Assembly (NCBI RefSeq): GCF_910592395.1
Contig: NC_088313.1
Location: 17,702,500 to 17,766,499, forward strand
Source: Lineus longissimus
Taxonomy: Eukaryota
Length of the DNA: 64,000 nt
Reading direction: 5' to 3'
Shown: in pieces, positions 9,936-52,400 of the stretch
How positions within the stretch are numbered: the stretch's first letter is position 1
How the letters are laid out: each line of letters starts with the position of its first letter
Translations under genes and position numbers: made by a program
The notes under the pieces: model-generated
The model's database searches: none
What the model was told of the DNA's origin: nothing
Seen by the model: the letters and a program-made list of their open reading frames with translations, nothing else

Positions 9936-9991
9936 TAGAATGAATAAATAACAACAAAATGAAGAGAGAACAAAGAGAAAAATGTAATGGA

Positions 9992-10062
9992 TTTAAGGGG
10001 AGGCGAACCCGTGACCACCAGATCGAAAGTCCAGCATTCTAACCATTGAACCATCAAGGCCT
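9992..10062 (-). other. tRNA-like fragment (tRNA-derived SINE head or tRNA pseudogene)
   Basis: The reverse complement reads GGCCTTGATGGTTCAATGGTTAGAATGCTGGACTTTCGATCTGGTGGTCACGGGTTCGCCTCCCC. It has D-arm and T-loop-like GGTTCG motifs. There is no matching 3' acceptor strand or CCA end, and the anticodon stem is imperfect. Confidence 0.3.
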
Positions 10063-11084: not shown

Positions 11085-12305
11085 ATGAATTACACACCAG
11101 GACCTAACAGCACCGAGGTGTCGGGGACATTCTTACCCACCGAACTCCCGGCTGCAAACATCACGAAAAATATCACTGAACCCCACGAACCGGTCGGGGA
11201 ATGGATCAAAGCAATGACTATACCGTTCTATGTCGTCATCTTTGTCGTCGGCGTGACCGGAAATAGTCTTGTTGTTTTTGTCGTTGCGCGGAACAAAGCC
11301 ATGCAGACGATCACTAATATTTTTATAACAAACCTTGGATGTGCTGATATAATGATGTGTCTTCTTGCTGTGCCTTTCACACCACTCGCAGCGTTCCTGG
11401 ATGACTGGCCTTTCGGGGAGGTGATGTGCCAGATTATACCAATGTCACTGGCGGTCAGCGTCTTTGTTTCAACCTTGACCTCAACCGCCATTGCTATTGA
11501 CCGATATTTTGTGATAGTTTACCCGTTTAAGCCACGGATGAAGGCATGGCTCTGCTTGCTGTTAATAATATCAATATGGATCATTTCCTGTTCTGTCTCC
11601 TTGCCCCTGGCTATATACCGTAGGATAACAGTGGACAATGGAGATAGACAATGTGGTGAAGACTGGCCAGACATTAACTCAAGAAAGTTCTGCATTATTA
11701 CGTTATTTTTCTTACAGTATGTTGTACCATGTTGTGTCATTACGTTCTGCTACTGGCGAGTTTCTGGCGTGCTGCGAATGCGCGCTAAAGCTAAGATAGG
11801 AAGTGGAAACAAATCACGGGAAAAAGAAGAGATGGAAATCCGTCGTAAGCGAAGAACGAATAGGATGCTGATCGCTATGGTGGCTATATTCGTCGGGTGC
11901 TGGATGCCTTTGAATGTCGTTCTCCTGACGCAAGAAGCCCACCCTAGAATTGAAACTTGGCAATGGCTCAAACTGATTTTCTTCATTGCACATATCATCG
12001 CCATGAGCTCCGCGATATACAACCCCTTCCTGTACGCGTGGATGAATGAAAATTTCCGAAAGGAATTTAAACAGGTTCTGCCCTTCTTATTCTCTGGTCA
12101 TACACACAGCAAACTGAACGGCAGCATGACGCAGTACTCTACTGTCGACACGACACATACGGTTGTCGACCGATCGCCCATGCGCGAACGAAACGGAAGT
12201 AACGTTGGGACGGGCAAGACCACGCAGGCGCACTATGATGTTGATTCAGAAAAGGTTCATTTGAAAGTTGCCGAGGATGGCGATGAACCAAGGGAAGAGG
12301 TATAG
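11085..12305 (+). CDS. Class A (rhodopsin-like) neuropeptide-type GPCR, intronless, 406 aa
   Basis: Seven hydrophobic segments. N-terminal N-glycosylation sites NST/NIT. GNSLVVFVV...TNIFITNLGCAD (TM1-2). TM3 Cys followed by AIDRY (DRY-type motif). CWMP in TM6. NPFLYAWMNENFRKEF (NPxxY plus helix 8) resembles NPFF, QRFP, PrRP and orexin receptor tails. Single uninterrupted ORF. Confidence 0.9.
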   Translation: MNYTPGPNSTEVSGTFLPTELPAANITKNITEPHEPVGEWIKAMTIPFYVVIFVVGVTGNSLVVFVVARNKAMQTITNIFITNLGCADIMMCLLAVPFTPLAAFLDDWPFGEVMCQIIPMSLAVSVFVSTLTSTAIAIDRYFVIVYPFKPRMKAWLCLLLIISIWIISCSVSLPLAIYRRITVDNGDRQCGEDWPDINSRKFCIITLFFLQYVVPCCVITFCYWRVSGVLRMRAKAKIGSGNKSREKEEMEIRRKRRTNRMLIAMVAIFVGCWMPLNVVLLTQEAHPRIETWQWLKLIFFIAHIIAMSSAIYNPFLYAWMNENFRKEFKQVLPFLFSGHTHSKLNGSMTQYSTVDTTHTVVDRSPMRERNGSNVGTGKTTQAHYDVDSEKVHLKVAEDGDEPREEV

Positions 12306-28697: not shown

Positions 28698-31600
28698 TTA
28701 CTTTGATGAGATTAACCCCTCCGCAGTGTTGAAGAGGTTGATCGGTGAGTTGCCATCAGTGAGGAGGACGGATTCCAAGCCAAGGCTCGTCAGTAGTTTC
28801 ACCTGAAATTTGACAATCAGTAGATTAGGAAGCGTTCTTTGGGAAGATGAGATTGGTCAGTGTATTGAAACAAAACAGTGCCACACAACTGACACTGGGC
28901 AGGTGATAAGACAACCTCCTCCATTTCAAACCTGGAAATTGAAGTCCACAAGCTGGAAAATATCAACCAAAAGAGCTGCTAAGTTGCCTTTGGATCAGCC
29001 ATAATCAGGGCTTTCGTTGAACCATTTGCTTTGGGAAGAAACTACCATCATTGCACTTTTTCTTACCTGTCCTGCTGGACCAGCATTAGCCATAGCAACC
29101 ACGGTGTCTGCCCCAATTGTATTCATCATACTGGATATCTTAAAGATCTGGAAATGAAACACAACAGTGTATTAAAGTGACCATTAATATCCCTGGCTTT
29201 TGGTTAACGACGGCTGCAATTGTCTCCAGGCTCATATACTTGATGTTTCGTAATATAAGGAGATTTAATAAACAAAGTGATCCCTGGGTGCAAACGCAGG
29301 CTGAGAAAGTGTGTCTTCCAAAGCTCTGCCACGAGACCCCTACTCACTTCAATAGCAGCCATCTTCTTCATCTTGTCCACTTCAAGTTCGGCTCGCGCTT
29401 TCTCATATTCTATCTCGGCAGTACGTAACTGGAAAGAACACAAAATGTGCATCAAATAATACCCTTGAATCGAGAAACAGCTAACTAAGATTTTTCACCA
29501 ATTTGAAAGAAACTCCTGTACTGTAGTCGGATCTTTGTGTTTTCTCAAATAGATGTTTAATAAATGTACTTCAAGCCTGATTTTGTTGAAATTTTAACCA
29601 AACCTGGAGAAATGATACATAAGCACCATTCCCCTTGAGAACTGGGGTCTAACTATTACTGGATAACCTACCTTGTCCTGGCTTTCCAAGCTATTATAGT
29701 GTTCGATCTCGGCTGCCTCACATCTCAACTTCGTACCTGGAAGGAGTCAATCATAAGTATTTCAAGCGCAATTCTCAAAATGATGGAAAGTTAAGCAAGA
29801 ACTGGATTAACCACACGAACAACCAATTCAAGCACAAGACAATAGGATTACCTTCAATTTCACTCTGGCATTCAATAAGCATCTTCTCCGCTTGTGCCTG
29901 AGCCTCGGCCTGAGCTTGACCCGTGGACTCCACCGCGGCAGTCACAGCACGTAACTCGCACAACTTTGTTCTTGCCTTCTCCGCCTCCTTTTCATTCACG
30001 AGTTTCTGTCTCTCGAGTTGACCTCTGGCGATCTGTTCCAACCGTTTGGCCTCATGGGATGCAGCTCTCTCGATTGAGCTGAAATACAATGTAGGTTGTT
30101 TACAAGGTTAGTTAATATGCTTACTGTAGTTCCATGAAGGTTGGTTCGATGAGTCTTGCCACAGCACTCCTACTGTCAGACTGCTGGCTGAGAACAGACT
30201 TGAAATGGAAGCCTAAGACTGAGGTGTATCTCTTTATCTTTGCAAATGACCCCAAGGATTCTTTTCGGTGCATGCACCATGGGCAGTGCGAACACCAATC
30301 TGCCTTTATCAACCAGTTAAGTAGGAATAGTGAAAGAATGTGATTAGGGAGATCACATTTCAAATGGATCACTTGACTTCAGAAGTGAAGATTAAATTTC
30401 CTCTACGGGTCAATTATACTTACTTTGTTGCAATCTCGATGGCCATTTGTACAGACTGCATCAGGCTGTCACGCATCCTTGAATCGACCGGCTCTATGCT
30501 CTGGATGTCAATGTTTGTCACAACCTAAAGTAAAATACATGTAGAACAAGCTTAATCCAGGGAGGGGTTGGCCCAACATTGATTCTGAGGCTGCAGCTAA
30601 CAATTCTTTGGAGTAGTCTACACAGTAGGTGTAAAATGCAAGCGACTATCCAACACAGAAATGTCATCAACATATATTAATAGATACTTGTGATATACAG
30701 TGGAACCTCCCTTAGCGGACACCTATGTAAGCGACCATTACATTCTTTCCCTTCAATGAAATCCGTCATAGAGAAACAAAATCAAACCACAAAATTCCGG
30801 TCATTTTTAAATTACTCACCAAGTTATTTTGTGAAAATGTGAGAGCCTCTCTTGTTTTTCCAGTCTCATCAACTCCAAACACTGCAGTGTTGATAATCTT
30901 GGCTGAGTAACGATGGAATTCATCAAAGGCCGTGAGGGCCACTGAGCCTCGCACACGACTACCTGTAATAATTGACGGTCAAAAATCACAGACGAGACGA
31001 ACTCAACAGACTTTTTTCAGTATCGTTGATACATCAATTGGCCTACAATTGCAAATGAATGACCTCTCTGTTAGTAGCTCTTGAATTAGGAAGGGGAAGT
31101 TTAAGAACATGTCACAATTTCAGTATGAACTTACCAACTTGTCTACAAGCATATCCAATGAAATCTGGGACTGAAAATATCTTGGCTTCGGATTCTGGAT
31201 TTCCCCTTTCAACCTAAAAGAATTAAAAACTAATTTAGATTTCTCATGCATAAGCAAAATAACCATTCCAGTAGGTAAATAAATACATTCAATACTATCA
31301 TAATCATGAGTTAAAGTACACATGCAACTTTGGCTAAAATTAGACCAGTTTATGCCCTTTGACAAACTCGTCTGCATGTTATTGAGGAAAGGATTCTACT
31401 TTTTGGGGTAAGATGCATCAGTGTTACTTACCTGAAAGCAGTTGTTCATTGCAAGCCGGATCCTCAGTCGAGCGTGATCAGATGTCTCAACCTAGATGAG
31501 AATGAGAAAAAGACTTTCAGAGAAAAATAATCGTATGAAACAACACACAAGAGTCAATTTCACGCAGTTTGGCTTTATTTTATCAAAGTTATGAAAGTGC

Positions 31601-34600
31601 GATTGTTAGACCAAGTACTGTCAAGAAGTTCTTTTCTCAGGCCAACATCCCTAATCACATGATCGCGGTTGCAGCACCATCATTCATAGATTCCAGTACA
31701 GGAATTCCACCACTTACCACGAGTTCATCAGTTATGAAATCTGGCCCAAGCATCAAACAGAGCGACTTGAACGCGTCTTCTTTCTTTGGTTTGCCACCAC
31801 TGAGACTGAGAACGTTGAAATCTTCATGAGGACCGAGAACAACGAGGTCGGGACCGAAGACAACACGCGCCGTCTTCTCTTGATAGTTGTACACTTGGAC
31901 AGCACAGTTCCCTGGACACTTGTAGGTCACCACTCTAGACTTGTCACGAGACTGGAGAATACGAAGAACCAAAAGTTTACTCAGAGGACTCTGCCTTTAG
32001 TACTTCAATGTTCATGTTGATTTGCACCATGCTACCTCAAGTTCCAAATCAATTAGTCAATTGATCCACTAAATCTAACCTCAACTATTTCGTCATTCAA
32101 TTGAGAGACCCATCATCACCTACAGTACAGAAGAACAAAAGAGAGGTGAGCATGTTGGTCAGGGCGTCGTAAGAGTTTTCAATAATACTTACTTCTGTGA
32201 ATGCAGGGTCGATGGACTGCTCGTAATAGGCTAGCTTTCTGATGTCACTGCCAGCAGCACTATAAACACCCCCTTGTCTGGAAGAATGACGAAACTTTTA
32301 ACAAAAAAATGGAAATTGCACCTGGTATTCACTTTTAACTTCTGTTGTTAAAAAGCTTCATTCAAGAATGACACGAGTGGTTTATCCAATCAACGAACCA
32401 GTATTACACAGTCATCTTACTTTAGCTACCAACCAACTTCAACCATGTCATCAGCATATGTCACTGGCAAGGTTTTAACTGCATTTTCCAAGGTTTTAAG
32501 CAGCAGTCACTGGCAAGAAAGGAGCAATAATCATAACTACAAAATTTCATGTCTATCTTCACCTCAAGTGGTCTACATGTACCTACCTAAGCATTATGTC
32601 GACCAAAGGTGGCAACTTTTTCGCCCAGAGATCTTCGTAGGCTGTCAGGAGGTATGAGCAAGGACCAAGCATCGAACGCACCTTGCCTGTCTGGACATCA
32701 CGGATGTAAACTCCTTCATTCTTGCCAAGAGCAATGGCTTTCCTGGAGTAAAGAATGACAGGTAATCTCAAGTTCATGAAGAAAAGCAGGGAATCGGCCA
32801 AATAATGGTTTGGCACCGGGCTCAAAACCCAATGGTTGTGATCATGCTAACTGCTGTGGATATCAGACTATAGACCACAACTTGGGTCTTTGAAGTTTAC
32901 GCAGCGGGACAGCACTTACCTGCTGCAGACAATGGAGACCTGAATTGGTGGAATATACTCCGTTGGTCCCATGATCATCCAGCGGTCACCAGGGCATCGC
33001 TTCTTTCCTGAAAAGGCATTGTTCATCTGTATCCTTAGTTTGAAAGTGAGCATAAGAATTCAGCATTCTTGATATAGGAGGAGACAAGAGGCTTCTTTGG
33101 CCTCCACTTCCCAGTATTCAGCTGCCTATTTCTAGACTAGACCCTTCTCCGAGCAAGGGGCCTCTAGTAAATACGTTACTGGGATGGCTGAAATGGTAAT
33201 ACAATAGAAGAAAATACCTGCTTCTTGCTTTCATTAATACCTTTTGCCATTCCATCCTTGAATGCTTCTATTGCAGTAAGAACAACAGCTTCATCAGGTC
33301 CAAGTAGTAATGAACGCTGGATACCTTTTTCCAACTCCTCTCCTGTGAATAAGAAGAAAATAACAAAGTTATTGCATGTCTTTTAGATAGACCCTGGAGT
33401 ATACAGCTGGGCGTGTCCAACCCCAGCCTACACGGAGTAAAGACAACAGATCATTTTATTTCCACAAATAAAGATTTTTTGAGAAATCCACTAAACTAAA
33501 ATACTTGGGGGTTTGCAGTTCATTTACACACATACCTGGGTGGAGGAAGAATGAGCAGATACCAACTCTCAGTTCTTTCTTTCCAAGTTGATTCTTGCCA
33601 TGGTTGTCAACTGGTTCCAGGACGACGCAGTACTCATGATTCTTCAATATGGTCTTCTTTATTGTTTCTTTGACACGCTGAAAATTGAACATCAAATTTG
33701 TCACACTGAAAATAGGATATCAGATTTCTAATACATGCAATTTCCTAATGGTACTAACCACTCCAATTGCTGGGATAAAGCACTCTGTTTCTTCAACAGT
33801 GACCAACCATTCTTCCCCGGATGCTCTGCAAGTATGAAAACAAATATAACTCACTCAAAACAAAACTGTCATACAGCAAAACTCAAAGTCAAGCAAGAAA
33901 TAAACACATTCCAACGTATAGGAGTCTGAATACATCAAAAGGACACCTCATGAATTGTGAAATATCACCCTTTATGAAGTCAGGAGAACTGTCCTGATAA
34001 CACAACTAAAATTCACGAAAATTTACCACTTTTGGAACTACGCAGTCCACTTGTCGATTTGGAGAAGTACTCACTAGTCAAAGTAACTAGGGCAATTCTT
34101 CACAAGTTATTTTGCTACCTAATTTACCTGTCTTTTCCAAATTGATCCACAGTGTTCTGGTCTGCCTGAAGATGGAGTGCCGTATCGAGAGTCAAGGTCA
34201 TTGGCTTCTCTATACCGACAACTTCTTCAAATACTCCAGGAAGATAGGCACCAGGTTTCCTGACCAGCCATTCCTCCCCAGTCACTCGCTCTCTTTAAGG
34301 AAATCAGAAAAATCATTGACCTTGCTTTGATGTGCATCAAAACTTGGGTAACTAAAACATGCACCAAATTATAAACAGATCTAGTTTACCACCATCTTTT
34401 ACATTTGCTCCAAATGTGTATTATTGATGTTGCTGTTTGGCACCGCTTCCTGCCCCATGATTCCGGATTCCCACTGAAACCAGATAGTCAAGATTTGCCA
34501 ATAGCTGTCAGGCAGAGTAACCTGCCCTTGAATAGTAACTCAGGAATCTCAACTTATGTATCACTATGTCACTCTCTCCTGGCACCTTCTGAATGAATTC

Positions 34601-36068
34601 AAATAGAATAGTGCAGAGAGAAATTTCACAAGTTTTTAACGATAGAGAAATTTTCCACTTACTTTCCTTCAAAATCAACAGTGCCCTGCAACGCCCTGAC
34701 ACGAAGTGCATCACCTTCTATTATGATCGTTGGGCTGGTGTAGCAAACGATATCCTGAAGAGAAAGAAAAGATATCATATCACATATCATATCAAGGACA
34801 ATCAGTAACGAAGACCTACTGAGAGACGCTAACCTGAAGCCCATATCAGAATTGGTGAAGGAACGAAGATGGCAATGGTTGGGCCATGTGCTCCGAATGC
34901 CTGCAAACGCATTGCCAAGGAGAGCACTCACATGGACACCACAGGGGAGACGGAATAGAGGCAGACCAAGAGAGACCTGGCGGCGTTCCATGGCAAAGGA
35001 ACTTCAAGAGAAGGGCCTAACGTGGGAGGCAGCCAGACAGCGAGCAGCCAACAGACTTGAGTGGAGGACCCTGGGGCACGCCCCATGTGCCACCTAGGGC
35101 ACGAAGGGTCCTAAGTAAGTAAGTATCATATCAAAGTAACAAGAGGAAGTAAGAGTACCACCAATACAGCAGGTTATTTTTTTAGAAGCCTGAAGGCGAG
35201 ATACCTACAACATTTGGATCAGGGTGATAAGTCAATGGCCCTTCCAACTGCCATTGGTCCTCCGCACTCCTCGCAGTACCATTGTCATCAAAGTCAACCC
35301 GAGCCTTCAGACGAATTCCATGGTTCGCCTTCAATGTCGGTAGTTTCTTGATGGCCTTGGAATAATCATTGGTGCTGGTACCAAAGTTACGCTCATGGCA
35401 AAGGACTTCCCCTGGGTAGAGTGGGAAGGGTTCTCCATGGAAGCGAACATCAAAATGTCCATGTCTCAACTCGGACAGCTTTCCAGGCTCATATTTCCTG
35501 CAAAGTAAGATAGCAGAAGAGAGTTGATGACAAAGTATGTAAGATTGTTCCACACTCTGATGAAAGCAAATCACCTAAAATACTTGTTGTATTACATGTA
35601 AACTGTGTGGTGTACTGTCATATCTCTAGTGTTGTGGGATCTTTGCAAATACCTTTTAAGCTTAATTTAATCATGATAGCCCAATTTTAGACATGATTAC
35701 AAACATCATACTCACACAATAGGATTCTGAATGGTGCAATAGTGACCTGGAGGGACAATGATGAAGGGAATGGGACCCATTGTCAGAACTTCATGAGTCT
35801 GCAGACACAGAGACTGTGGCCCTTCTTCTATCTTAGTAACATTAGTTCTCTGAAAATGAAATGAAAGGATAAGGCCTGTCATTGTCAACTAACTTAACTA
35901 TGGCTCACGGCTTCAGGCGGGCTTGGCCTCGGCCTGAAATGCACTGCCAAAAAAGCCTAAAATGGACTGCTAAAAAGTATCAAATGACATAATCATAGGC
36001 CGAAGAAAACTCACCTGGTCCAAAATATGGACAAACTGAAGATTGGGGATTCCAATAATTTTACTCAT
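28698..36068 (-). CDS. MVP: Major vault protein (MVP) gene, about 20 coding exons (CDS span)
   Basis: Exon 1 (36015-36068) encodes [18 protein letters not shown] followed by a gtgagt donor; human is [21 protein letters not shown]. Exon 2 at about 35717-35852 reads [14 protein letters not shown]. The 35205-35510 exon reads [15 protein letters not shown]...[11 protein letters not shown]. Later exons, in order along the minus strand, contain:
- [10 protein letters not shown].
- [27 protein letters not shown].
- [17 protein letters not shown].
- [35 protein letters not shown].
- [19 protein letters not shown].
- The coiled-coil cap-helix region [19 protein letters not shown] and [15 protein letters not shown].
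- [34 protein letters not shown], ending at the stop codon 28698-28700. Confidence 0.9.
30696..30760. repeat. Fragment of the same Tc1-like MITE family as 61220-61401
   Basis: tacagtggaacctcccttagcggacacct matches the terminus tacagtggaacctccctaagcgtacacct of the element at 61220. Lies in an MVP intron. Confidence 0.4.
34790..35135 (+). mobile_element. 5'-truncated non-LTR retrotransposon (LINE, RTE/CR1-like) 3' end, antisense in an MVP intron
   Basis: The [80 protein letters not shown] matches the C-terminal tail motif common to many animal LINE ORF2 proteins (WLGHV.RM...RGRP..TWRR.....L...GL.W.EA...A..R..WR). It is followed by a (TAAG)n microsatellite tail. Confidence 0.65.
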
Positions 36069-36639
36069 TTTGTCATCTGTGTCAGTTGTCTACAGCTATT
36101 CTTAATTGACCCTGAGTTTCTTGGGTTGCGATGCAATGGACGAGACGAGGAACAGCCTTGATAGGTGTTTGTGCAGCCCTGGATTGTTTATTCTTGTGAA
36201 AAAAGAAGTTTTATTTCCTGGTTTGCATTCCTGAGGGGTTTCCCAATCAACCTCGTCTTCGTAGGAATTCATTCACAATCCAAAAATAGAACAAGGCATC
36301 TGTCATGTCCAGCGCCACCGTCAGGTGCTGCTACCTATATTGTTATACGTCCAGCACCACCGCCAGGTGCTGCCATCTATATTGTTAATTGTACTATCTA
36401 GCGCACTACTGCCAATCACAAAGTTGTTATTTTTACATGTCAATTTCTCTGCTATAAATCGCAATTTAGGCTTTGAATTATCAGAAATGATATATAACTG
36501 ATTTATGTTGTCATTATTATGAAAAATTATCCGAAAAGCGGTGTTTTAGCGCTAACTAATGGTTTGAGGTTGTTCAGTGAAGATTTCCTATTTTGACAGG
36601 TTTGGGACTTCTGTGTAGTAGCAATGCACAAGTTTCAAG
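36069..36639. promoter_or_regulatory. Putative bidirectional promoter between MVP (minus) and the DCLRE1A-like gene (plus), containing a roughly 40-bp direct repeat
   Basis: Head-to-head start codons at 36068 (MVP) and 36640 (DCLRE1A-like). The direct repeat ccagc(g/a)ccaccg(t/c)caggtgctgc(t/c)a(c/t)ctatattgtta occurs at 36308 and 36351. Confidence 0.5.
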
Positions 36640-37000
36640 ATGGAAGATTCAAATGATTTTTCAGACTTTCAACCAGCAAATAAGTCATTCAGAGTGTTCA
36701 GAACAAAACAAAAAGGTGTTATTAGGGATAAGCTTGCTAAATCTCAAAAGCTTACCCAAGTTGATGACACTAATGTTTTGCAATCTCATGCACGAATGCG
36801 AAGAAAAAACGAAAAGTTCGCCAACTGTGACACTAACACCAACAGTGCCAACACTGGCAACAGTAGCAATACAAGAAAGTTTCGTAACAAATCTAAACCA
36901 CCAGCAACCAAGGCGAAGAACCAAAATTCAGGATTGTGTCGGACCAGTCAGACGTCCTATATCGATAACACTTTAGCGCATGAGAATACCACAGAGAAAG
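36640..37000 (+). CDS. DCLRE1A: DCLRE1A/SNM1A-like gene, coding exon 1 (N-terminal, poorly conserved)
   Basis: ATG at 36640 opens an ORF MEDSNDFSDFQ...HENTTEK(G). The aaag|gtatga donor leaves phase 1, which matches exon 2 starting g|gt.. in frame. The N-terminus is not conserved enough to confirm. Confidence 0.5.
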
Positions 37001-37453
37001 GTATGATAATGGCATGCTTCGTAAGTTTCAGCACAGTCGATGTGGTCGTAGTTCTTTCACCCATGACCAGAGACTCAGAGACATGCCACGGGAGACTGCA
37101 TTACTCCACAAAGATGTGACGGCTTGCATCATCAACTGTTGTCGAGTTGAATCAAAATAGGTTGGCTCCTGCCTGGAGCCAGTGGAGGAGTTTAAGACTA
37201 ACTTCATCCATTCAGTTGACAGATATACTGACTGTATAGTGTATATGGTCGATCACAGTCATCTCAGTCGGGTGATCTGAGCCATTCCCAAGATGATCAT
37301 GTAGTCGTATCTTGTGATGTGGTGTCCTGAAATTCCAGTGCTGATGCATTATGCTAGATACCTGAGATGAGCACCAATGTAATTATCTGAACCTTGGAGC
37401 AATGATTACTTGTCATTAAAGGTTAAGTTGTAATTCCTCATTCTGGCTTGCAG

Positions 37454-39136
37454 GTTTAGATTCTGATGTCACAGTTGTACATCAAAGTCCACAGAGATCC
37501 GAAAGAAAGGAACAAAGATCTGCAACACCAAACTCCACCTCTAAGAATCAGACAATTTTGAATTCCTACTTTGATATCAAATCTACTCCAACAACACCAG
37601 TAGGAAAACAGACTGGTTCCAATTCTTCAGGTAAAAGATCTTCCCAGAAAGCATCACAATCCAAGTCAGCTAGAGCAAAAAGGAGATTATCGACTGAAGA
37701 TTCAAAGGTGCCTAAGTCTAGATTAGGAAAGAAGAAGAGAGGAGCTTTACAATCTCAAACATCCTGTCGCAAGAAGAGAGTGCAAACCTATGTCATTGAT
37801 GACAGTGATAGTGATGTAGTTTGTATCGGAGATGCGGAGAGGGCTACATCGAAACAGAAAATGTTTGACGACTTTGTTGACAACGAGGAAAAGCGGGATG
37901 CTGTGAAATCAATTGATGTTGAAAGTGTTGATACTGCTGCAACTGAATCTTCATCAAAAGGTTGTACAAATTTCAACGAATTGGATGAAGATGTGTGTCC
38001 AGGTGCTGAAGGATTTCAGAATTTTCAACTTGACAGATCGGATTCTGAAGAGGATGTGTTCACTGGAAATTCGAAAATTGATCATGCTGTGGAAGAACTG
38101 TTTTCTGATGAAATGGATGATGAAGCTGGTGAAGTCTTACCCCTTGACAGATCTGAAGAGGACGTATTCACAGGTAGTGTCTCAAGCCACTTAAAAAAAG
38201 ATGTATCTGGGGATAACCTGTATCCTGGTGGTGAACTTGGTTGTTGCACTGTGTTTTCACGCGACATTTCGGAAGAGAATATTTTTTCAGGCAATATGAC
38301 CAGCTCAAAACGTGTAGGGGAAGAATGTCAAGAGGACATATTTCTAGATCTGGAAGACATCTCAATGAGAGATTGTGCAGTGAAACCATGTTCCCAAGGG
38401 GGCTCCTTACTGACATTGACAGAGGATACGAATCGGGACCATGGTGCGACAAGTATTGGACATGACAATGCCACAAAGGTTGAAAGCAATGATACCGGTT
38501 CCAAAGATGTTAGCCAAAAAGATTTTGCGCCACCTTCTAGTGACTTCCCCTCCCTAGATGAGGGTGAAAGTGATGATGAATTCTTTGCAGCTTTAGACAT
38601 ATTAGAGGAGAACCAGCGTGTGACGCGGAGTGATAAAGATTCCATTGAATCAACTGCGTCCTCTGTTTCTTCTACTTTAGCATGTGGTCAACAACCGTCA
38701 AGAACTTCTGGTTTGCTCAGCACCCTCAGTAATTTATCATCTCAGTTTTCCCTGTTTTCTGGAAGAAGTACATTGACATCCTCTGTACCGGACTCAGAAA
38801 CAGTGGACTCTACTGGAAAATCACAAAGCAGCAGCAATGAGGTTCAGGAAACTGGTTACAAAGTGAATTCTAATGCTTCAAAACAAACTTCAATCAGTTC
38901 ATTTTTCAAGGCTAAGTTTTCTGTGTCTTCGAATGGTGTACCGCTAAGCGTCGCTGCAGGGACTCGGAGTAAAAGCATGACTGCCACAAAAACTCAAAGA
39001 CAATCAAAGGAGGAATCGTCTCAGTCTCAGCCAAACGCTTACCAATCTGACAGCAGTGGAACAAGCAGTAACTTCAGTCATCTCCAGGTTTATAGTGGCA
39101 GCAAGAGATCTTGTCCATTCTACAAGAAAATTCCAG
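37454..39136 (+). CDS. DCLRE1A: DCLRE1A/SNM1A-like coding exon 2, a large Ser/Asp/Glu-rich low-complexity region ending in the conserved CPFYKKIPG
   Basis: Acceptor ttctggcttgcag|gt. ORF continuous to ...GSKRSCPFYKKIPG. Donor ccag|gtttgt. Human SNM1A has [22 protein letters not shown] at the same junction. Confidence 0.8.
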
Positions 39137-39475
39137 GTTTGTAAAACACAAAAGCATTGGTGAGCCCTTGATTTTTACAGTTTCAGCGAAGATCAGGTTC
39201 CATTCAAGTCTATTCGCAGGTTAAAAACAACAACGTGTCTTTTCATTATCCGAATGGTTACATATTTTAGGAGTACCAGGTTTGTCCAGTACATGTATGG
39301 TGTATGTACATGTATGGGAGTAGAGTTAGAGTCCTATTGAAACTGAAGCAATTCTGGAGTGATGGAAAAAACAGAATGAGTTTTCTACATTTCTCTACAA
39401 TGCTCATGAACATACCTAAAGCTATATTGGATGTACTTGTGCCACTATCACAACTTATTCCTTTCCTTCTTTCAG

Positions 39476-39609
39476 GCACTGGCTTTACTGTTGATGCATT
39501 CCGTTATGGTACAATTCCAGACTGTACAGGGTATTTCCTCACCCATTTTCACTATGACCACTATGGGGGACTGGCTAAAAAGTTCTCACAGCAGATCTAC
39601 TGCAATCAG
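39476..39609 (+). CDS. DCLRE1A: DCLRE1A-like exon 3, metallo-beta-lactamase HxHxDH motif
   Basis: (G)[44 protein letters not shown]. Acceptor ttcag at 39471-39475; donor cag|gtaaat. Confidence 0.9.
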
Positions 39610-39743
39610 GTAAATTCCTCAACAAGCTGCAACTTTGAATAGGTTAAATAGGGTATAACAAGTCAAATACTGAGACCAGAGTAATAATGTATTCATCATT
39701 TGAGTTGACAGAAAGTTCAGGTCTCTGGATATGCTCTTTTCAG

Positions 39744-39862
39744 ATCACCTGCAATCTTGTCCGTAAGAAAATTGGAGTCACAGCCAAGTTCATAACGGTT
39801 CTCCCTATGAATGAGCCATGTGATGTACAGGGGGTTAACGTCACACTCCTCGATGCCAATCA
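39744..39862 (+). CDS. DCLRE1A: DCLRE1A-like exon 4
   Basis: ITCNLVRKKIGVTAKFITVLPMNEPCDVQGVNVTLLDAN(H). Human is ITGNLLKNKLHVQEQYIHPLPLDTECIVNGVKVVLLDANH. Confidence 0.9.
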
Positions 39863-40218
39863 GTAAGTTTTTTCAAGTATTACAACTCCGTGTTAATGAA
39901 AAAAGACAATGCCAATATGGTTGTCAAATAAAATCATACTATGGGAGTTCTTACCTACTGATGAGACACGAAAGACATAGGTACAATTAGGTTACGAAGG
40001 ACTGTCTTTTCTATCCGTGCTATCCAACAAATTACTTGCAAACACAATGAGCAATGTACGGAAACCTGACCAAATGCATAGCAGACCTGCCATGACTGTA
40101 AATAAACAGAATAGCCACGATTGTGTCCCTGGAGAGTGAAACCAACTCGCCAAGTTACTGCAAGGCATTTTGACTGAAATCTAATGTGTGATTATTGTCT
40201 TCTTTCCCAATCGTCCAG

Positions 40219-40362
40219 CTGCCCTGGTGCTGCAATGTTTTTGTTCCGATTGCGTAATGGTCAGACAATCCTTCATGTTGGTGATTTCCGTGCAAGTCGA
40301 GCCATGGAGAGTTACCCTGCCTTGACGGGCACCAAGATTCATCAACTCTACCTCGATACAAC
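40219..40362 (+). CDS. DCLRE1A: DCLRE1A-like exon 5
   Basis: CPGAAMFLFRLRNGQTILHVGDFRASRAMESYPALTGTKIHQLYLDTT. Human is [32 protein letters not shown]...LYLDTTY. Donor ac|gtaagt. Confidence 0.9.
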
Positions 40363-40545
40363 GTAAGTCTGCAAACAATATCATTCTCAAAGTAAAGAAA
40401 GCTGTTAAAGAAGCCTCTCAAGGCAATTTGATTATTCTGTACTGCTTTCAGTTTTTCTTCAAACAAGCCACCATCAGCAACTTGTGTTTGTCATCCTACT
40501 TGTACCAATCAAGCCTTGTCATAGACTGATACTCTTTATCCTCAG

Positions 40546-40691
40546 ATACTGTGATCCAGCGTACACATTCCCACCTCAAGAAGAAACAATAGCGATTACT
40601 GTTAACATTGTCCTTGAAGCGATTGAAGATGATCCGAACACTCTATTCGTATGTGGAACTTACACAATCGGGAAAGAAAAAATATTCTTAG
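40546..40691 (+). CDS. DCLRE1A: DCLRE1A-like exon 6
   Basis: YCDPAYTFPPQEETIAITVNIVLEAIEDDPNTLFVCGTYTIGKEKIFL. Human is [48 protein letters not shown]. Confidence 0.9.
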
Positions 40692-40871
40692 GTAGGTTCT
40701 GTGAATGGGTCTGAATCTGTCCAGGCAAATATTGGCATCCGTCCTGACTTTTAACATCTCCTAACAGCAAGAAATAAGTAAAGAATTAGCATAAGTGACT
40801 AACATTGTCTTGAGCTGAGGCCTTCTTATAATTACATGTGGCCAACTCAAAAAGACTATACTGTTTTTCAG

Positions 40872-41026
40872 CCATTGCAGAAGCACTCAGCTGTAAAGTG
40901 TGTGTGAACAAGGACAAGAAGGACATCCTGGAATGTCTAGAAGACCAGCATATAAAGGACATCCTGACTCTCCGATGGGAAGACACCAAGGTTCATGTCT
41001 TGCCAATGGGGCAACTCAATGCGAAG
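40872..41026 (+). CDS. DCLRE1A: DCLRE1A-like exon 7
   Basis: AIAEALSCKVCVNKDKKDILECLEDQHIKDILTLRWEDTKVHVLPMGQLNAK. Donor aag|gtagat. Collinear with human AIADVLGSKV...LLPMMQINFK. Confidence 0.85.
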
Positions 41027-41357
41027 GTAGATGCAAACCACACATCAGAATTACAGTAGCTTTGGTTCCATGGAAAATATTGATGCAAAGATCCCAAGAT
41101 GACGATGACTGTAATTGTCAACTACATGTCACAAGCTGAAAAATATCTTCCACCTTGAAACAATGAGCAGAGCCTTAACTACTGTTTACATTTGGTCACA
41201 GCAATGAATGTTGATGATGTCATGTGAAGCAATTCCGGAGACGTTTAGCCCTCTTGCTGATAAATAACTGAGCCAGACTTGGATTCATTTTATCATTACT
41301 TTTCAGAGAGTGTTGTTCCAAGGAGTCTCTTGTGTAAAATGATAAATTTCCTTGTAG

Positions 41358-41502
41358 AGCCTGGAAGTACATCTACAGAAATACAAAGGGAAATATTCTA
41401 AGGTGGTAGCTTTTGAACCAACTGGATGGACCCACAGTAAACAGAAGAAGACATCTAACAAACTCCAACCAAAGTTTAAGAATGATTCAATCATAATCTA
41501 TG
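41358..41502 (+). CDS. DCLRE1A: DCLRE1A-like exon 8
   Basis: Acceptor ttccttgtag. SLEVHLQKYKGKYSKVVAFEPTGWTHSKQKKTSNKLQPKFKNDSIIIY(G). Human is GLQSHLKKCGGKYNQILAFRPTGWTHS...GNISIYG. Confidence 0.85.
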
Positions 41503-41840
41503 GTAGGTATTAAAAACAGCCTGTGATGACCCCAAGTACAATAAAGTCACAATCACGTCCTGTTGGACAGCTGTATTTGTACAAGTCACAACCAGTAATT
41601 CCCATGAAAAACAAACACTGTGATTTCTTCATAAATCAATCGACTAGGTACATGAAATTGCAGTTCTAACCTATATTTCAGTCAGGCCAAGCAGACTGTG
41701 AGATGTCCTGATTTTTCATCCCAAAATGGCTTCTGACAGAACCATCCTCCAAAAAATGGCTCTCAAAAGAACAATAGAACATAATCTGCCTCTCTGTATT
41801 TATCAATTTTATTTTCAAACTAAGAAATTTTGTATTCCAG

Positions 41841-41995
41841 GTATTCCATACAGTGAGCACAGCAGTTATTTGGAAATGAAGCGGTTTGTTCAATTCATGC
41901 GACCAACAAGAATTCTTCCAACAGTGAATAACGGTAGTGCCAAAAGTCGCCAGAAGATGACGGCTATATTTGATGAATGGATGCATGAGAACTGA
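41841..41995 (+). CDS. DCLRE1A: DCLRE1A-like exon 9 (terminal, stop TGA at 41993-41995)
   Basis: (G)[50 protein letters not shown]. Human is [47 protein letters not shown]. Confidence 0.9.
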
Positions 41996-45124: not shown

Positions 45125-46094
45125 ATGGAACTCACACCTAGTGGGGTACTTCCTGATTTGCCGCACCTCTCTTTTCCAATGGATCACCAATTGAGTCCAG
45201 ATTTGAGCACGTACGCATCGAGTCCAAATTCACTCTTCATGTATGAACAAGAACGCAATGACATGCAGAATTCCTTTAATCCAAGATGTGCATCAAGGTC
45301 CCGCTATCACAGTAGCATGTCGGAATCCAGCGACTCCATGCAAGTGGAAGGCATGGATATGGAGTATGTGCAGATGCCCGATTTTTTGTCAAGCTCGTAC
45401 AGTTCCTGTGACACAAGTGCCCCACTGGAGGGGACGTCGCAACCAGAGACAGTATGGGAGGGAAGCAATTTCAACAGCCCCGGCAGTGTTAAAATGGAAG
45501 ATGTTTTCCAAACAGATGCAGTCGCAAATAAAGGTCCGACGTTGGCTGCACTGAATGCCAATGGTGAATGTGACGAGTCGATTTTCGATGATATCGAAAG
45601 TGTAATCCGAGATGATTTGGCTACATCAGATATGTCTGCTTTGGAGTGTCCGCTTCCCACGAGCAATGCCCAGGACGTCAAGCCTAAGATTGTACGGCCA
45701 TTGTGCTCCAAGCCTCAGACATTTTTTTCGACTGCTTCGCCTCCCATCCGGAATCCATCGCAAGTGACTGCCATGTCGTCTTTTACATCTACTGCCCCTC
45801 TGCCCAACGACCAAGAATCTGCACAGGACAATAAGGTATCCTTGCACAGACTTCTCATGCAAAAGTCTGTTGGTGAGATGCCTACCCAATCAGTGCCGAG
45901 TCCTCCTTGTTCTCTACCCAGTCCAAGTATGATAGTGCCCAATGATTCCAAAGTCAGCTTGAAGCGATCTCTACACGTGGATGATCAGAAATGGGCAGAG
46001 GTAGAGCGGTTTTTGCACGAGGAAAAACTTTTACCAGCAAATGGGGCTAAAGCTGAATTGGCTGCAACTGGTGTTAGTGGCAGACTTCGACATG
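45125..46094 (+). CDS. CREBRF: CREBRF-like gene, first coding exon
   Basis: ORF MELTPSGVLPDLPHLSFPMDHQ...FMYEQERNDMQNSFNPR... resembles the human CREBRF N-terminus ...DFMYELDREMNYQQNPRDNF. It ends at donor catg|gtgagt in phase 1. Confidence 0.8.
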
Positions 46095-46761
46095 GTGAGT
46101 ATTTTCAATCCTGTACTTCTTGTGTGTGTCTGCAGTCTGTGGCTGTGACACCGTTATTGACGACTATTTAAATTCTAGCTTAGTGTTACCTGTGAACTCG
46201 GAAATTTTACTATTTATGATGGCGGCCTTTAATATTGCGTCACTGATGTGACAAAATCTTGACTGTAATCTGAATTGATCTATAAATCTTTAATGTCTTG
46301 ACTTGACTGTACATAACAATTTACATGATGTTGTGATGATGGCTGTTGTCGCCCAAAATCCTGTATAAAATATGAATTGTCTTAGTAATAATTATAGTTT
46401 ATTTTCTTCTTGATAATAATTGTACAATTTATATATATTTTGTAGAAGTAAAGTCTTTTTAAAAAGTTAGCTGATTTCATTTCGAGGACATGAGCTGCCA
46501 GAAGGATGAACAAAGAAATGATTTATGATTCTGAACCCGTGTCCTATATTGTCATAAAATAATAGTATATTAATTTTAATAAGTACTCATCTTGATAAAG
46601 AGGGTTGATCAGCATGGGAATTTTACCAATTCACATTGTTCATACCACAACATGTGTCTTGAATATTTTGGTTTCCCATTTTTGAATGGAAGTGGGTGGG
46701 AGTTTTGGCAGAGCCGGTGGGAGGTTAAAGAAAATACTTCATAAGGAGTTTCTTGTTGCAG

Positions 46762-49427: not shown

Positions 49428-52400
49428 TTAACCCTTTCAGCTCGAGTCTCGATTGGAGTCGAGACGAGTTTGAACCTTTTGATGGACGAGTCTCGACTCC
49501 AGGCGAGAGAGCCTCCCTCCCTCTAAAAGATCGTCGATGCTTCGTTTCAGTGTATATTCCGCCAATTAAACACACCCGCTGGGGAATCCCCACATTCCGG
49601 GAATACCTTTTCTATTCATAGCAACTCTGTTGCGCAATCCTGAAACTGGCAAAACGTGGTTGATTTGCTTCGAATTTTCTTGCATTTTGAGACGCCATTT
49701 ATACCAAAATGGCGAAATTGAAGACAGTTGATGATGTGGTTGATGAACTTATGGCAGACTCTGAATCAGACGATGGTGATTTGCCGAGTGATTTGGAGGA
49801 TTATTCTGACGAAGGTGACACTGTAGATCGTGTAGATTCAAAGCATGGCTCGCCTGTAGATATGCATGCTGCTGTAGGGGGTGGGACAGAGGACGAACTG
49901 TCTTCGTACCACACTGATTCTGAGCACACTCAGGCTGAAGATAGTGACTACTCACCAAGTGAAGGAGAAAGAGCTGATATGATGGACATGAGTCTAGCAG
50001 ATGATGAGTCTGATCCTTCAGATGATTTTGATATGAGTGGAAGTGCACCAGCTTCCCCAAGCCCATCACCAACTCCGTCTCCTCCACGTGGTCGAGGACG
50101 CGTTCGTACACGTGGGGGACGTGGTCGTGCCCATAGTCCTGTCAGAGCTCCAGTGCCTTTGTTACCAGCCCAGCCACAGGCACCACCCCCAGCCCCTGCT
50201 GTGCCTGCTCCAGGGCCACCCTTGCCCCAGAGAGGAGGTGGTGGCAGGAGAGGACGAGGACGTGGGAGGGGACGTGGACAGCAACCGGCTGCCCCCCAAC
50301 AGGCTGCAGGCCCTGTATGGCAAGATGATAATGGGGAAGTTCCAAATTGGCTTCCAAATTTGCAGAATCAACACCCAGCAGAGCCTGTGATGGATTGTAC
50401 AGACTTCACCCCTGTGGACTTCTTTCTTGCGGCATTCCCAGAACAAGCTCTCCAACTTATGTGCGATGAAACCAATCGTTATTATTCGCAATGGTACGAG
50501 AAAACAGAGGCTGCTGCCTTGAGGACAGGAATAAGACATTCTGGGGATGAAACTACGAAGAAGCAGTGGAAGGATGTTGATCTAGGGGAGATGAAAGCTT
50601 TCATTGCGATTCTTCTTATCATGGGCAACAATCTAAGGCCCACATACAAGGCATACTCAGGTCGACTGACTGGCTAACTCACATGGAGGGATTTAGAAAA
50701 GTGATGTCAAGAGACAGGTTCCTTCTAGTTCTAAGATTTCTGCATGTAGCAGACAACACTGGGGCTGTTCCTAGGGGGCAGCAAGGATTTGATCGCTGCT
50801 TCAAGATAAGGCAGTTCGCAAATGTGTTGGTTGACTCATGGAAGAGGATTGTCAATCCGGATAAGCATGTATCCGTCGATGAATGCATGGTTGCATTCAA
50901 AGGTCGTGTTGCAATGAGACAATATATGCCCAAAAAGCCAACAAAGTGGGGCATGAAGGCCTGGGTGCTGGCAGGCTCAAAGACAGGGTTCGTTTTTGAC
51001 TGGAAGCTGTACAGTGGAAAGGAGGGAGACAACGTAGAGAGGAATCTTGGGCGCAAAGTTGTCCTAGATCTTACAGATATGTTACCACCTGGACATGAGG
51101 TATATTTCGATAACTATTTCAACAGCTATGAGCTACTCCAGGTCCTTGAAGGAAGAGGATTAGGTGGTTGTGGTACACTGCGTTCAAACAGGACTGCAAA
51201 CCCTGCTGAAATCAAGATGTTCACAACAAAGCTGTCTGCAGCTAGGCTGCAGGCAATGTCACCGATTCTCAAACGCTGTGGCAATATTCTTGCATTGGGC
51301 TGGTATGACAAAAGACCAGTTAGTGTAATGAGCAATATTCACACTGCAGAGATGATGAACAAGAGAGTCAGAGATGCAAATACCCCAGGTGGCCACAGGA
51401 ACATTCGAAAGCCTATGGCAGTTGACCAGTACAATAAATACATGGGAGGAGTGGACTCATCTGATCAGCTCAATTCCTACAATCGCATGGTGAGGAAATC
51501 TCTCAAATGGTGGAAAAAAGTTCTCTTGCATCTGCTGGTCACTGCTGTTTCTAATGCATATGTCATGTACAGGATGGTGGTGCCTAAGGAGCAGCAGAAA
51601 CAAGGATACGAATTCAGAATTGAGGTTGCCAAGGAACTGGTCGTTGGATATGAACGTCGTCCTTCTGTACCGGGCCGTCCAAGTGTGAATCCTGCTCCAT
51701 TCAGGCTGACAGAGAGACACTTCATTGAGAAAGGAGATGGGAAAAAACCTGATTGTGTTGCATGCTGCCTAAGGAGAAACAACAAGTACGTACGAAGGAA
51801 GCAGACAGTGTACCGTTGCAAAAACTGCGTTCCCAAGGTTGCCCTCTGCATCATCCCTTGTTTCGAACTGTATCACACCCAGAAGGACTACAAGGCTAAA
51901 TATGAGGAGTATCTGAGGGCACAAGACCAAAACTAAGACTCTGACTGCAATAGAAAAGACAAGAACAAAGACATGTTAGGTAGAACAAAGTTTTATTGAA
52001 GGTTTGTTCCTGCGCGGACTGAAGACGAAAATTTTAGAATTTCACCTCAAATGGGACTCTTTGTCAAGGGTCCCATGTTGCTTTCTGGGGGTCAATAATG
52101 CAGACCTGACTAGTCCAGGGCAGGCACTTGTTTATTTTTACAAATGTACAATCATTTCTGTGGTTATATTTCATAGGGAAGCATTTATACCTTGGGATCT
52201 ACAATTTTGTCATTTTCAGGTTTTTCGAAAAAAAGTTGCGAGTTTTCAGGGACCTTCTATATACCCCCTAAAATTTTTTGGGGGTGATCTACCCCCTGGA
52301 AAGCTACATATTCTGAAAGATTAGGTAAAATGCTAAAAAAAACTCAATTGGTATTAGGCAATTGCTTGAATGCTTCCCACTGTAAATAGTGTTTGAAATT

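Follow-up and report, generated by a model that had tools for sequence, protein, structure and literature searches.

A compact head-to-head pair of the MVP and SNM1A genes in the nemertean Lineus longissimus, probably lineage-specific and with two separate core promoters

Over 10% of human genes, and a larger fraction of those of invertebrates, belong to divergent gene pairs whose starts are separated by less than 1 kb, and while their partners are reshuffled in evolution, the tendency of a given pathway towards such pairs persists (PMC3403606, PMC1853124, PMC3552671, PMC3514665). They are recognised by position (PMC1853124, PMC3552671), have also been treated by Adachi and Lieber (2002), as cited in PMC3514665, and in human more than 90% of bidirectional promoters contain CpG islands (PMC1853124). 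DNA-repair genes are enriched among them, with 35 of 105 human repair genes bidirectionally partnered and none of the partners being a repair gene itself (PMC3403606). For the major vault protein gene (MVP), which in human lies at 16p11.2, the promoter is described as TATA-less, with an inverted CCAAT motif (Y-box) and an E-box (PMC7916137). Here we analysed a stretch of 64,000 nucleotides from the nemertean Lineus longissimus (genome paper: PMC8593623; contig NC_088313.1, positions 17,702,500 to 17,766,499), hereafter the window, in which MVP stands head to head with an orthologue of the repair nuclease gene SNM1A/DCLRE1A.

The start codons of the two genes point apart on opposite strands with 571 bp between them, and no other gene lies between their facing 5' ends, as in the positional definition of a bidirectional pair; this distance bounds that between the transcription start sites, and so keeps it below 1,000 bp, only where both genes lack a non-coding exon farther upstream. 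An earlier note, made from the letters of the window, had put the start codons at 36068 (minus strand) and 36640 (plus strand) with about 570 bp between them, and direct reading bore this out, the SNM1A start also matching RefSeq. The same note had suggested that a vault component and an interstrand cross-link repair nuclease may be co-regulated from one shared bidirectional promoter. Its positional part stood, but the spacer shows no CpG enrichment, SNM1A has TATA- and initiator-like motifs of its own, an upstream exon is possible and the pairing is not conserved. Our reading, to which we give a probability of roughly 0.7, is that MVP and SNM1A form an ordinary, lineage-specific head-to-head pair with two close core promoters in a single 571-bp region. 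Transcription of both genes would begin in the spacer, each from its own core promoter, the two lying close together, and not from a single element serving both, and the pair itself would have originated by a rearrangement in the nemertean lineage.

Like other animal bidirectional pairs, this one joins a repair gene to an unrelated partner on the opposite strand at less than 1 kb, with facing 5' ends and CCAAT boxes, and the partner is not kept over long evolutionary distances; unlike them, its spacer is without a CpG island and has a TATA box on one side. The literature on such pairs would lead one to expect SNM1A to stand in a compact divergent pair whose other member is unrelated to it. We presume that human DCLRE1A is itself head to head with an unrelated gene, NHLRC2, on 10q25, a pairing that our literature search did not return; if this is true, a divergent SNM1A is not unusual, and the loci differ in the partner, NHLRC2 in human and MVP in Lineus. 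No paper linking MVP with SNM1A was found in the literature search, while the arrangement is already implicit in the public RefSeq annotation of the Lineus genome. As it stands the pair matters little, compact divergent pairs being among the commonest features of animal genomes, and the locus would become a useful case of promoter re-pairing only if nemertean transcripts proved the two genes to be tightly co-regulated.

The gene identities proposed earlier, MVP and SNM1A/DCLRE1A, were confirmed using Pfam, tblastn and a comparison of bit scores with Apollo and Artemis. By sequence comparison, the plus-strand gene is clearly assigned to SNM1A and not to its paralogues SNM1B/Apollo or SNM1C/Artemis. 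Against human proteins its product scored 420 bits with DCLRE1A structure chains, 137 with Apollo and 80 with Artemis; it is 55–60% identical to annotated DCLRE1A of molluscs, cnidarians and vertebrates, and its top named database matches are all DCLRE1A or SNM1/PSO2. Pfam analysis detected the DRMBL domain (PF07522, 1.2e-32), with weaker matches to Lactamase_B_2 and Lactamase_B, and the metallo-β-lactamase motif HxHxDH occurs as THFHYDH. Every intron of the nine-exon model has GT-AG borders and the model is identical to RefSeq XP_064630522.1 at 1013/1013 residues. The ATG at 36640, which opens MEDSNDFSDF and is preceded by an in-frame TAG at 36619-36621, is the start of both RefSeq proteins, XP_064630522.1 and XP_064630523.1, the latter (isoform X2) differing solely in an alternative 3' exon from near 41305 that truncates the β-CASP domain. 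Furthermore, in a 6.75-kb nemertean-like metagenome contig (L001) there is an SNM1A orthologue of identical exon structure, whose amino-acid identity to the Lineus gene is 49% in exon 2 and 69–84% in the catalytic exons; the start codon is conserved, because the first coding exon of this contig begins MADSNDFSDF.

A long N-terminal extension, disordered for the most part and containing a PIP box, is expected of SNM1A proteins, to which vertebrates add a UBZ zinc finger. The N-terminal region of the Lineus product comprises 670 residues rich in serine and in acidic residues, and contains a PIP-box-like QTSISSFF at residues 598-605 (window 38431-38454), which agrees with what we take to be the PIP consensus, Qxx[ILM]xx[FY][FY], and is kept in the protein of the related contig (P0002). 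No UBZ-like Cys/His cluster was seen in this N-terminal region, where no search aimed specifically at UBZ was made. RefSeq labels both Lineus proteins 'serine-rich adhesin for platelets-like', a misleading name that presumably stems from the serine-rich, disordered N-terminal 670 residues and that the present analysis corrects.

On the minus strand, open reading frames (ORFs) corresponding to MVP exons matched the Pfam domains Vault, Vault_2 and Vault_4, and tblastn with a human MVP query written out by hand placed the exons colinear with human residues 7-849, from 36059 down to ~28710. Stitched together, these exons are 40–52% identical, at ~100% coverage, to annotated MVPs of many animal phyla with all five Pfam MVP domains. 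The start codon occupies 36068-36066, and exon 1, ending at 36015, where the interval of the earlier note also begins, encodes the conserved MVP N-terminus; a short first coding exon ending just past FVHxxD-x is common to the MVP genes of Lineus, Lingula, Liolophura and Antedon. None of the AG dinucleotides upstream of the MVP ATG follows a pyrimidine tract and no credible acceptor was found there, which makes an intron in the 5' untranslated region (UTR) near the ATG unlikely. Judging from these letters, exon 1 probably carries its own 5' UTR and MVP transcription probably starts within the spacer. An out-of-frame upstream ATG opens a mini-ORF that overlaps the MVP start codon (Table 1), and it would be relevant only if the MVP 5' UTR extends that far.

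Two features of the MVP introns are recorded here in their own right. Intron 1 holds a 23-bp tandem repeat (two copies, 86% matches) at 35932-35976, just past exon 1. A plus-strand ORF at 34852-35097, inside an MVP intron where local GC rises to ~0.5, has no Pfam match and is similar, as we presume, to the C-terminal tail of ORF2 in non-LTR (LINE) retrotransposons.

Whether MVP and DCLRE1A stand head to head in other genomes had been raised in the earlier note, and on inspection of five phyla the neighbours were different everywhere: none of the other animal genomes inspected (Lingula, Owenia, Liolophura, Antedon, Nematostella, Lottia and Haliotis) has the pairing. The divergent upstream neighbour of MVP is a WD40 gene in the brachiopod Lingula (328 residues; 897 bp from ATG to ATG), the annelid Owenia (326 residues), the chiton Liolophura (327 residues; 2942 bp) and the crinoid Antedon (326 residues; 774 bp), and a cyclin gene in the sea anemone Nematostella. 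The corresponding neighbour of SNM1A is an ANF_receptor gene in the limpet Lottia, a Glyco_hydro_20 gene in the abalone Haliotis and an LRR gene in Nematostella, and in these three genomes no MVP gene occurs within 10 kb of SNM1A. The WD40 neighbours of Lingula, Liolophura and Antedon are mutually orthologous (68–89% identity) and belong to the RAE1/BUB3 family, the Lingula protein being 73% identical to a human BUB3 sequence written out by hand, which makes BUB3 a tentative identity, while that of Owenia was matched by Pfam profile and length only.

Its occurrence in one echinoderm, one brachiopod, one mollusc and probably one annelid makes the BUB3-like/MVP head-to-head pair look old and plausibly ancestral to bilaterians. 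It went without mention in the literature we searched, including the main text of Irimia et al. 2012. In Antedon, Lingula, Liolophura and probably Owenia, this pair resembles the Lineus locus in its short MVP first coding exon and, in Antedon and Lingula, in a compact spacer comparable to the 571 bp of Lineus; it differs in the partner, which in Lineus is SNM1A. No BUB3-like WD40 gene was found anywhere in the 64-kb Lineus window. Because the other genomes inspected show different neighbours for both MVP and SNM1A, the Lineus arrangement is derived, replacing the apparent old bilaterian BUB3-like/MVP pair, and this broken pair is a more interesting by-product of the analysis than the MVP-SNM1A pair itself.

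One route to such a replacement, which we regard as unlikely, would be a breakpoint within the BUB3-like/MVP spacer of less than 1 kb that, in the nemertean lineage, put SNM1A directly in the place of BUB3. Were it true, the locus would be a natural experiment in how intrinsically bidirectional promoters gain new partners, and the 42-bp tandem duplication at the centre of the spacer, described below, could be a scar or an adaptation. If, in addition, the MVP-proximal half of the spacer is the old promoter retained, SNM1A may be driven partly by antisense activity that once served BUB3.

The spacer has a GC content of 0.396 and a CpG observed/expected ratio of 0.63; the mean of this ratio over the window is 0.64, and it is equalled or exceeded in 44% of 571-bp windows. 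This ruled out a CpG-island promoter, with the qualification that the criterion is a mammalian-type one that may be inapplicable to promoters of invertebrates. A transposable element or dispersed repeat as the source of the spacer or its duplication was likewise rejected, as blastn of the spacer against the window returned only the spacer itself and the repeat core is unique. Between 35000 and 37600 no Rfam family matched at E<=1, vault RNA having been considered, and no tRNA was found.

Candidate promoter motifs were taken from a motif scan, as single short consensus matches that we treat as inference. CCAATCA, an NF-Y-type CCAAT box, occurs 19 times in 64 kb on both strands, which gives an expectation of 0.17 per 571 bp, and the spacer has two, both inverted relative to MVP. 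On the SNM1A side, the A of an initiator-like motif at 36483 lies 30 nt past the first T of a TATA box, and the predicted SNM1A 5' UTR would be ~157 nt long. This spacing fits two separate core promoters, and suggests from the letters that SNM1A has its own. The related contig has an ATAAAT at 223-228 and a TCA whose A, at 254, comes 31 nt later and 168 nt before the ATG (157 nt in Lineus), a match made post hoc and by eye. No canonical TATA box was found in the MVP-proximal half of the spacer. The motif scan likewise found no GC box (Sp1 site) and, in that half, no STAT (GAS) site, while a single TTCNNNGAA match lies at 36573, close to the SNM1A ATG.

Compared with the human MVP promoter, the Lineus MVP half thus resembles it in appearing TATA-less, with an inverted CCAAT box and upstream E-box(es), motifs that carry no statistical weight, and differs in having neither the GC box nor, in the MVP-proximal half, the STAT site. 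MVP would start from a TATA-less promoter at roughly 36100-36250 with the inverted CCAAT box at 36243, as in human, and SNM1A from the TATA box at 36453 and the initiator-like motif at 36483 or, alternatively, near its conserved leader at ~36600. The two core promoters would lie roughly 250–500 bp apart in one open-chromatin region, perhaps with a duplicated E-box element at the spacer centre in common, and some correlated expression of MVP and SNM1A could follow as a by-product of this proximity.

Several observations limit the case for two core promoters in a shared, 571-bp region. The core-promoter motifs are single consensus matches, and chance alone would give TATAAA 0.54 times in 571 bp. 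No MVP exon 1 was found in the related contig, which ends 421 bp upstream of the SNM1A ATG, too soon to show whether MVP is adjacent, and a metagenome scan with the MVP N-terminus returned two distant matches at 35% identity and no related MVP contig. Lastly, a pyrimidine-rich, acceptor-like AG at 36598-36599 (ttcctattttgacAG) sits exactly at the 5' edge of the leader block next to the SNM1A ATG, the only clearly alignable non-coding stretch between the two species: blastn similarity outside the coding sequence starts at window 36601 and contig position 383 and is confined to the 39 nt upstream of the ATG. The contig repeats this layout, with an acceptor-like AG at 376-377 (cctcgcctccAG) and conservation from 383. 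A second blastn block, 36230-36300 against contig 154-220, has 66% identity at E = 0.055 and is too weak for use. In Lineus the leader block also has an upstream ATG, at 36624 and out of frame, whose 10-codon ORF runs to 36656 and is not kept in the contig.

With an acceptor-like AG bordering the conserved block in Lineus and the contig alike, an upstream non-coding SNM1A exon is possible. The promoter would then not be shared: a non-coding first exon would lie elsewhere, more likely for SNM1A, with 36600-37000 as its exon 2, the spacer would be partly intron, and the promoters would overlap the other gene or lie farther away. A precedent on the other side would be human MVP, which we assume to have a non-coding first exon. 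Donor candidates within the spacer, read directly, are however weak or imply introns of just 30–60 nt, a conserved block next to the ATG is equally expected of a short 5' UTR or of a core promoter, and upstream of the MVP ATG the lack of a credible acceptor speaks against the same arrangement for MVP. We consider an unshared promoter unlikely, and return to the reading of two core promoters within the spacer.

The remaining feature of the spacer is its tandem duplication, for which the earlier note gave a size of about 40 bp and copies at 36308 and 36351, figures that were right to within a few bases. Tandem Repeats Finder located it at 36307-36387 with a period of 42, 1.9 copies, 89% matches and a score of 134, and a repeat search resolved it into two 39-nt copies with 90% identity. 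The 23-nt repeat core occurs in 64 kb only at its two spacer sites, with 0 expected from 100 shuffles. Each copy contains the palindrome CAGC(G/A)CC-N7-GGTGCTG, with 7-bp arms, which includes an E-box CAGGTG (at 36322 and 36364), and the duplication lies near the midpoint, with 239 bp separating it from the MVP ATG and 253 bp from that of SNM1A. All four differences between the copies (4/4) are transitions, and the related contig has no such duplication in its orthologous upstream region. We also considered the repeat core as a vertebrate CTCF or REST/RE1 motif and dropped it, the partial matches having been made by eye to consensus sequences written out by hand, with neither statistical nor phylogenetic support.

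A palindrome duplicated almost exactly midway in so compact a spacer would suit a functional co-regulation module, in which the two genes stay together because a single bidirectional promoter, with the duplicated palindromic E-box element as a shared activator site, co-induces the vault, as a particle of drug or damage tolerance, and the interstrand cross-link nuclease. MVP and vaults have repeatedly been tied to cisplatin resistance in human cells in the literature, PARP4, a vault component, has a BRCT domain of a kind that also occurs in DNA-repair proteins (PMC7916137), and the average co-expression of bidirectional pairs exceeds that of other adjacent genes (PMC3403606). However, the pairing is missing from the other animal genomes inspected across five phyla, the bidirectional partners of human repair genes are not themselves repair-related (PMC3403606), and no MVP-SNM1A paper was found; the duplication is, moreover, missing from the related contig, and its copies differ by transitions only, as a neutrally decaying slip duplication would. 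The pairing is derived rather than ancient and therefore does not speak for any functional tie of vaults to cross-link repair, and we consider such a module very unlikely. The coordinates of the pair and its spacer are given in Table 1.

Table 1. Coordinates of the MVP-SNM1A locus within the window (candidate elements are so marked)
Feature	Position	Strand	Details
MVP (major vault protein) gene	28710..36068	-	Downstream end approximate, at least to about 28710
MVP coding exon 2	35849-35716	-	
MVP coding exon 1	36015..36068	-	18 codons; donor gtgagt at 36014; read directly
Upstream ATG with mini-ORF	36065..36076	-	Out of frame, 3 codons (ATGACAAAATGA), overlapping the MVP start codon; read directly
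ATG-to-ATG spacer	36069..36639	.	571 bp, single-copy in the window
CCAATCA (NF-Y-type CCAAT box), candidate	36243..36249	+	Inverted relative to MVP
Tandem duplication	36307..36387	+	Copies 36307-36345 and 36349-36387; spacer centre
Second CCAATCA box, candidate	36412..36418	+	Inverted relative to MVP
Candidate SNM1A core promoter	36453..36486	+	TATAAAT 36453-36459; initiator-like TCAGAA 36481-36486
SNM1A leader block conserved with contig L001	36601..36639	+	Only clearly alignable non-coding stretch
SNM1A/DCLRE1A orthologue	36640..41995	+	9 coding exons, 1013-residue product
SNM1A coding exons	36640-37000, 37454-39136, 39476-39609, 39744-39862, 40219-40362, 40546-40691, 40872-41026, 41358-41502, 41841-41995	+	

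Elsewhere in the window, a 348-residue ORF at 45125-46171 (plus strand), 3 kb downstream of SNM1A and on the same strand, has no Pfam match and is probably an exon of the next gene. Farther along, a piggyBac-type transposase (Pfam DDE_Tnp_1_7 and zf-Tnp_2) occupies 49709-51936 on the plus strand, split into two ORFs (49709-50677 and 50683-51936); its N-terminal region is GC-rich and of low complexity, and the locus is a decayed copy or else a PGBD-like gene that has been domesticated. Towards the other end, an intronless ORF at 11085-12305 (plus strand) encodes a rhodopsin-family G-protein-coupled receptor of 406 residues (Pfam 7tm_1, 1e-58), and a tRNA-Glu(TTC) gene lies ~1 kb from it, at 9988-10061 on the minus strand.

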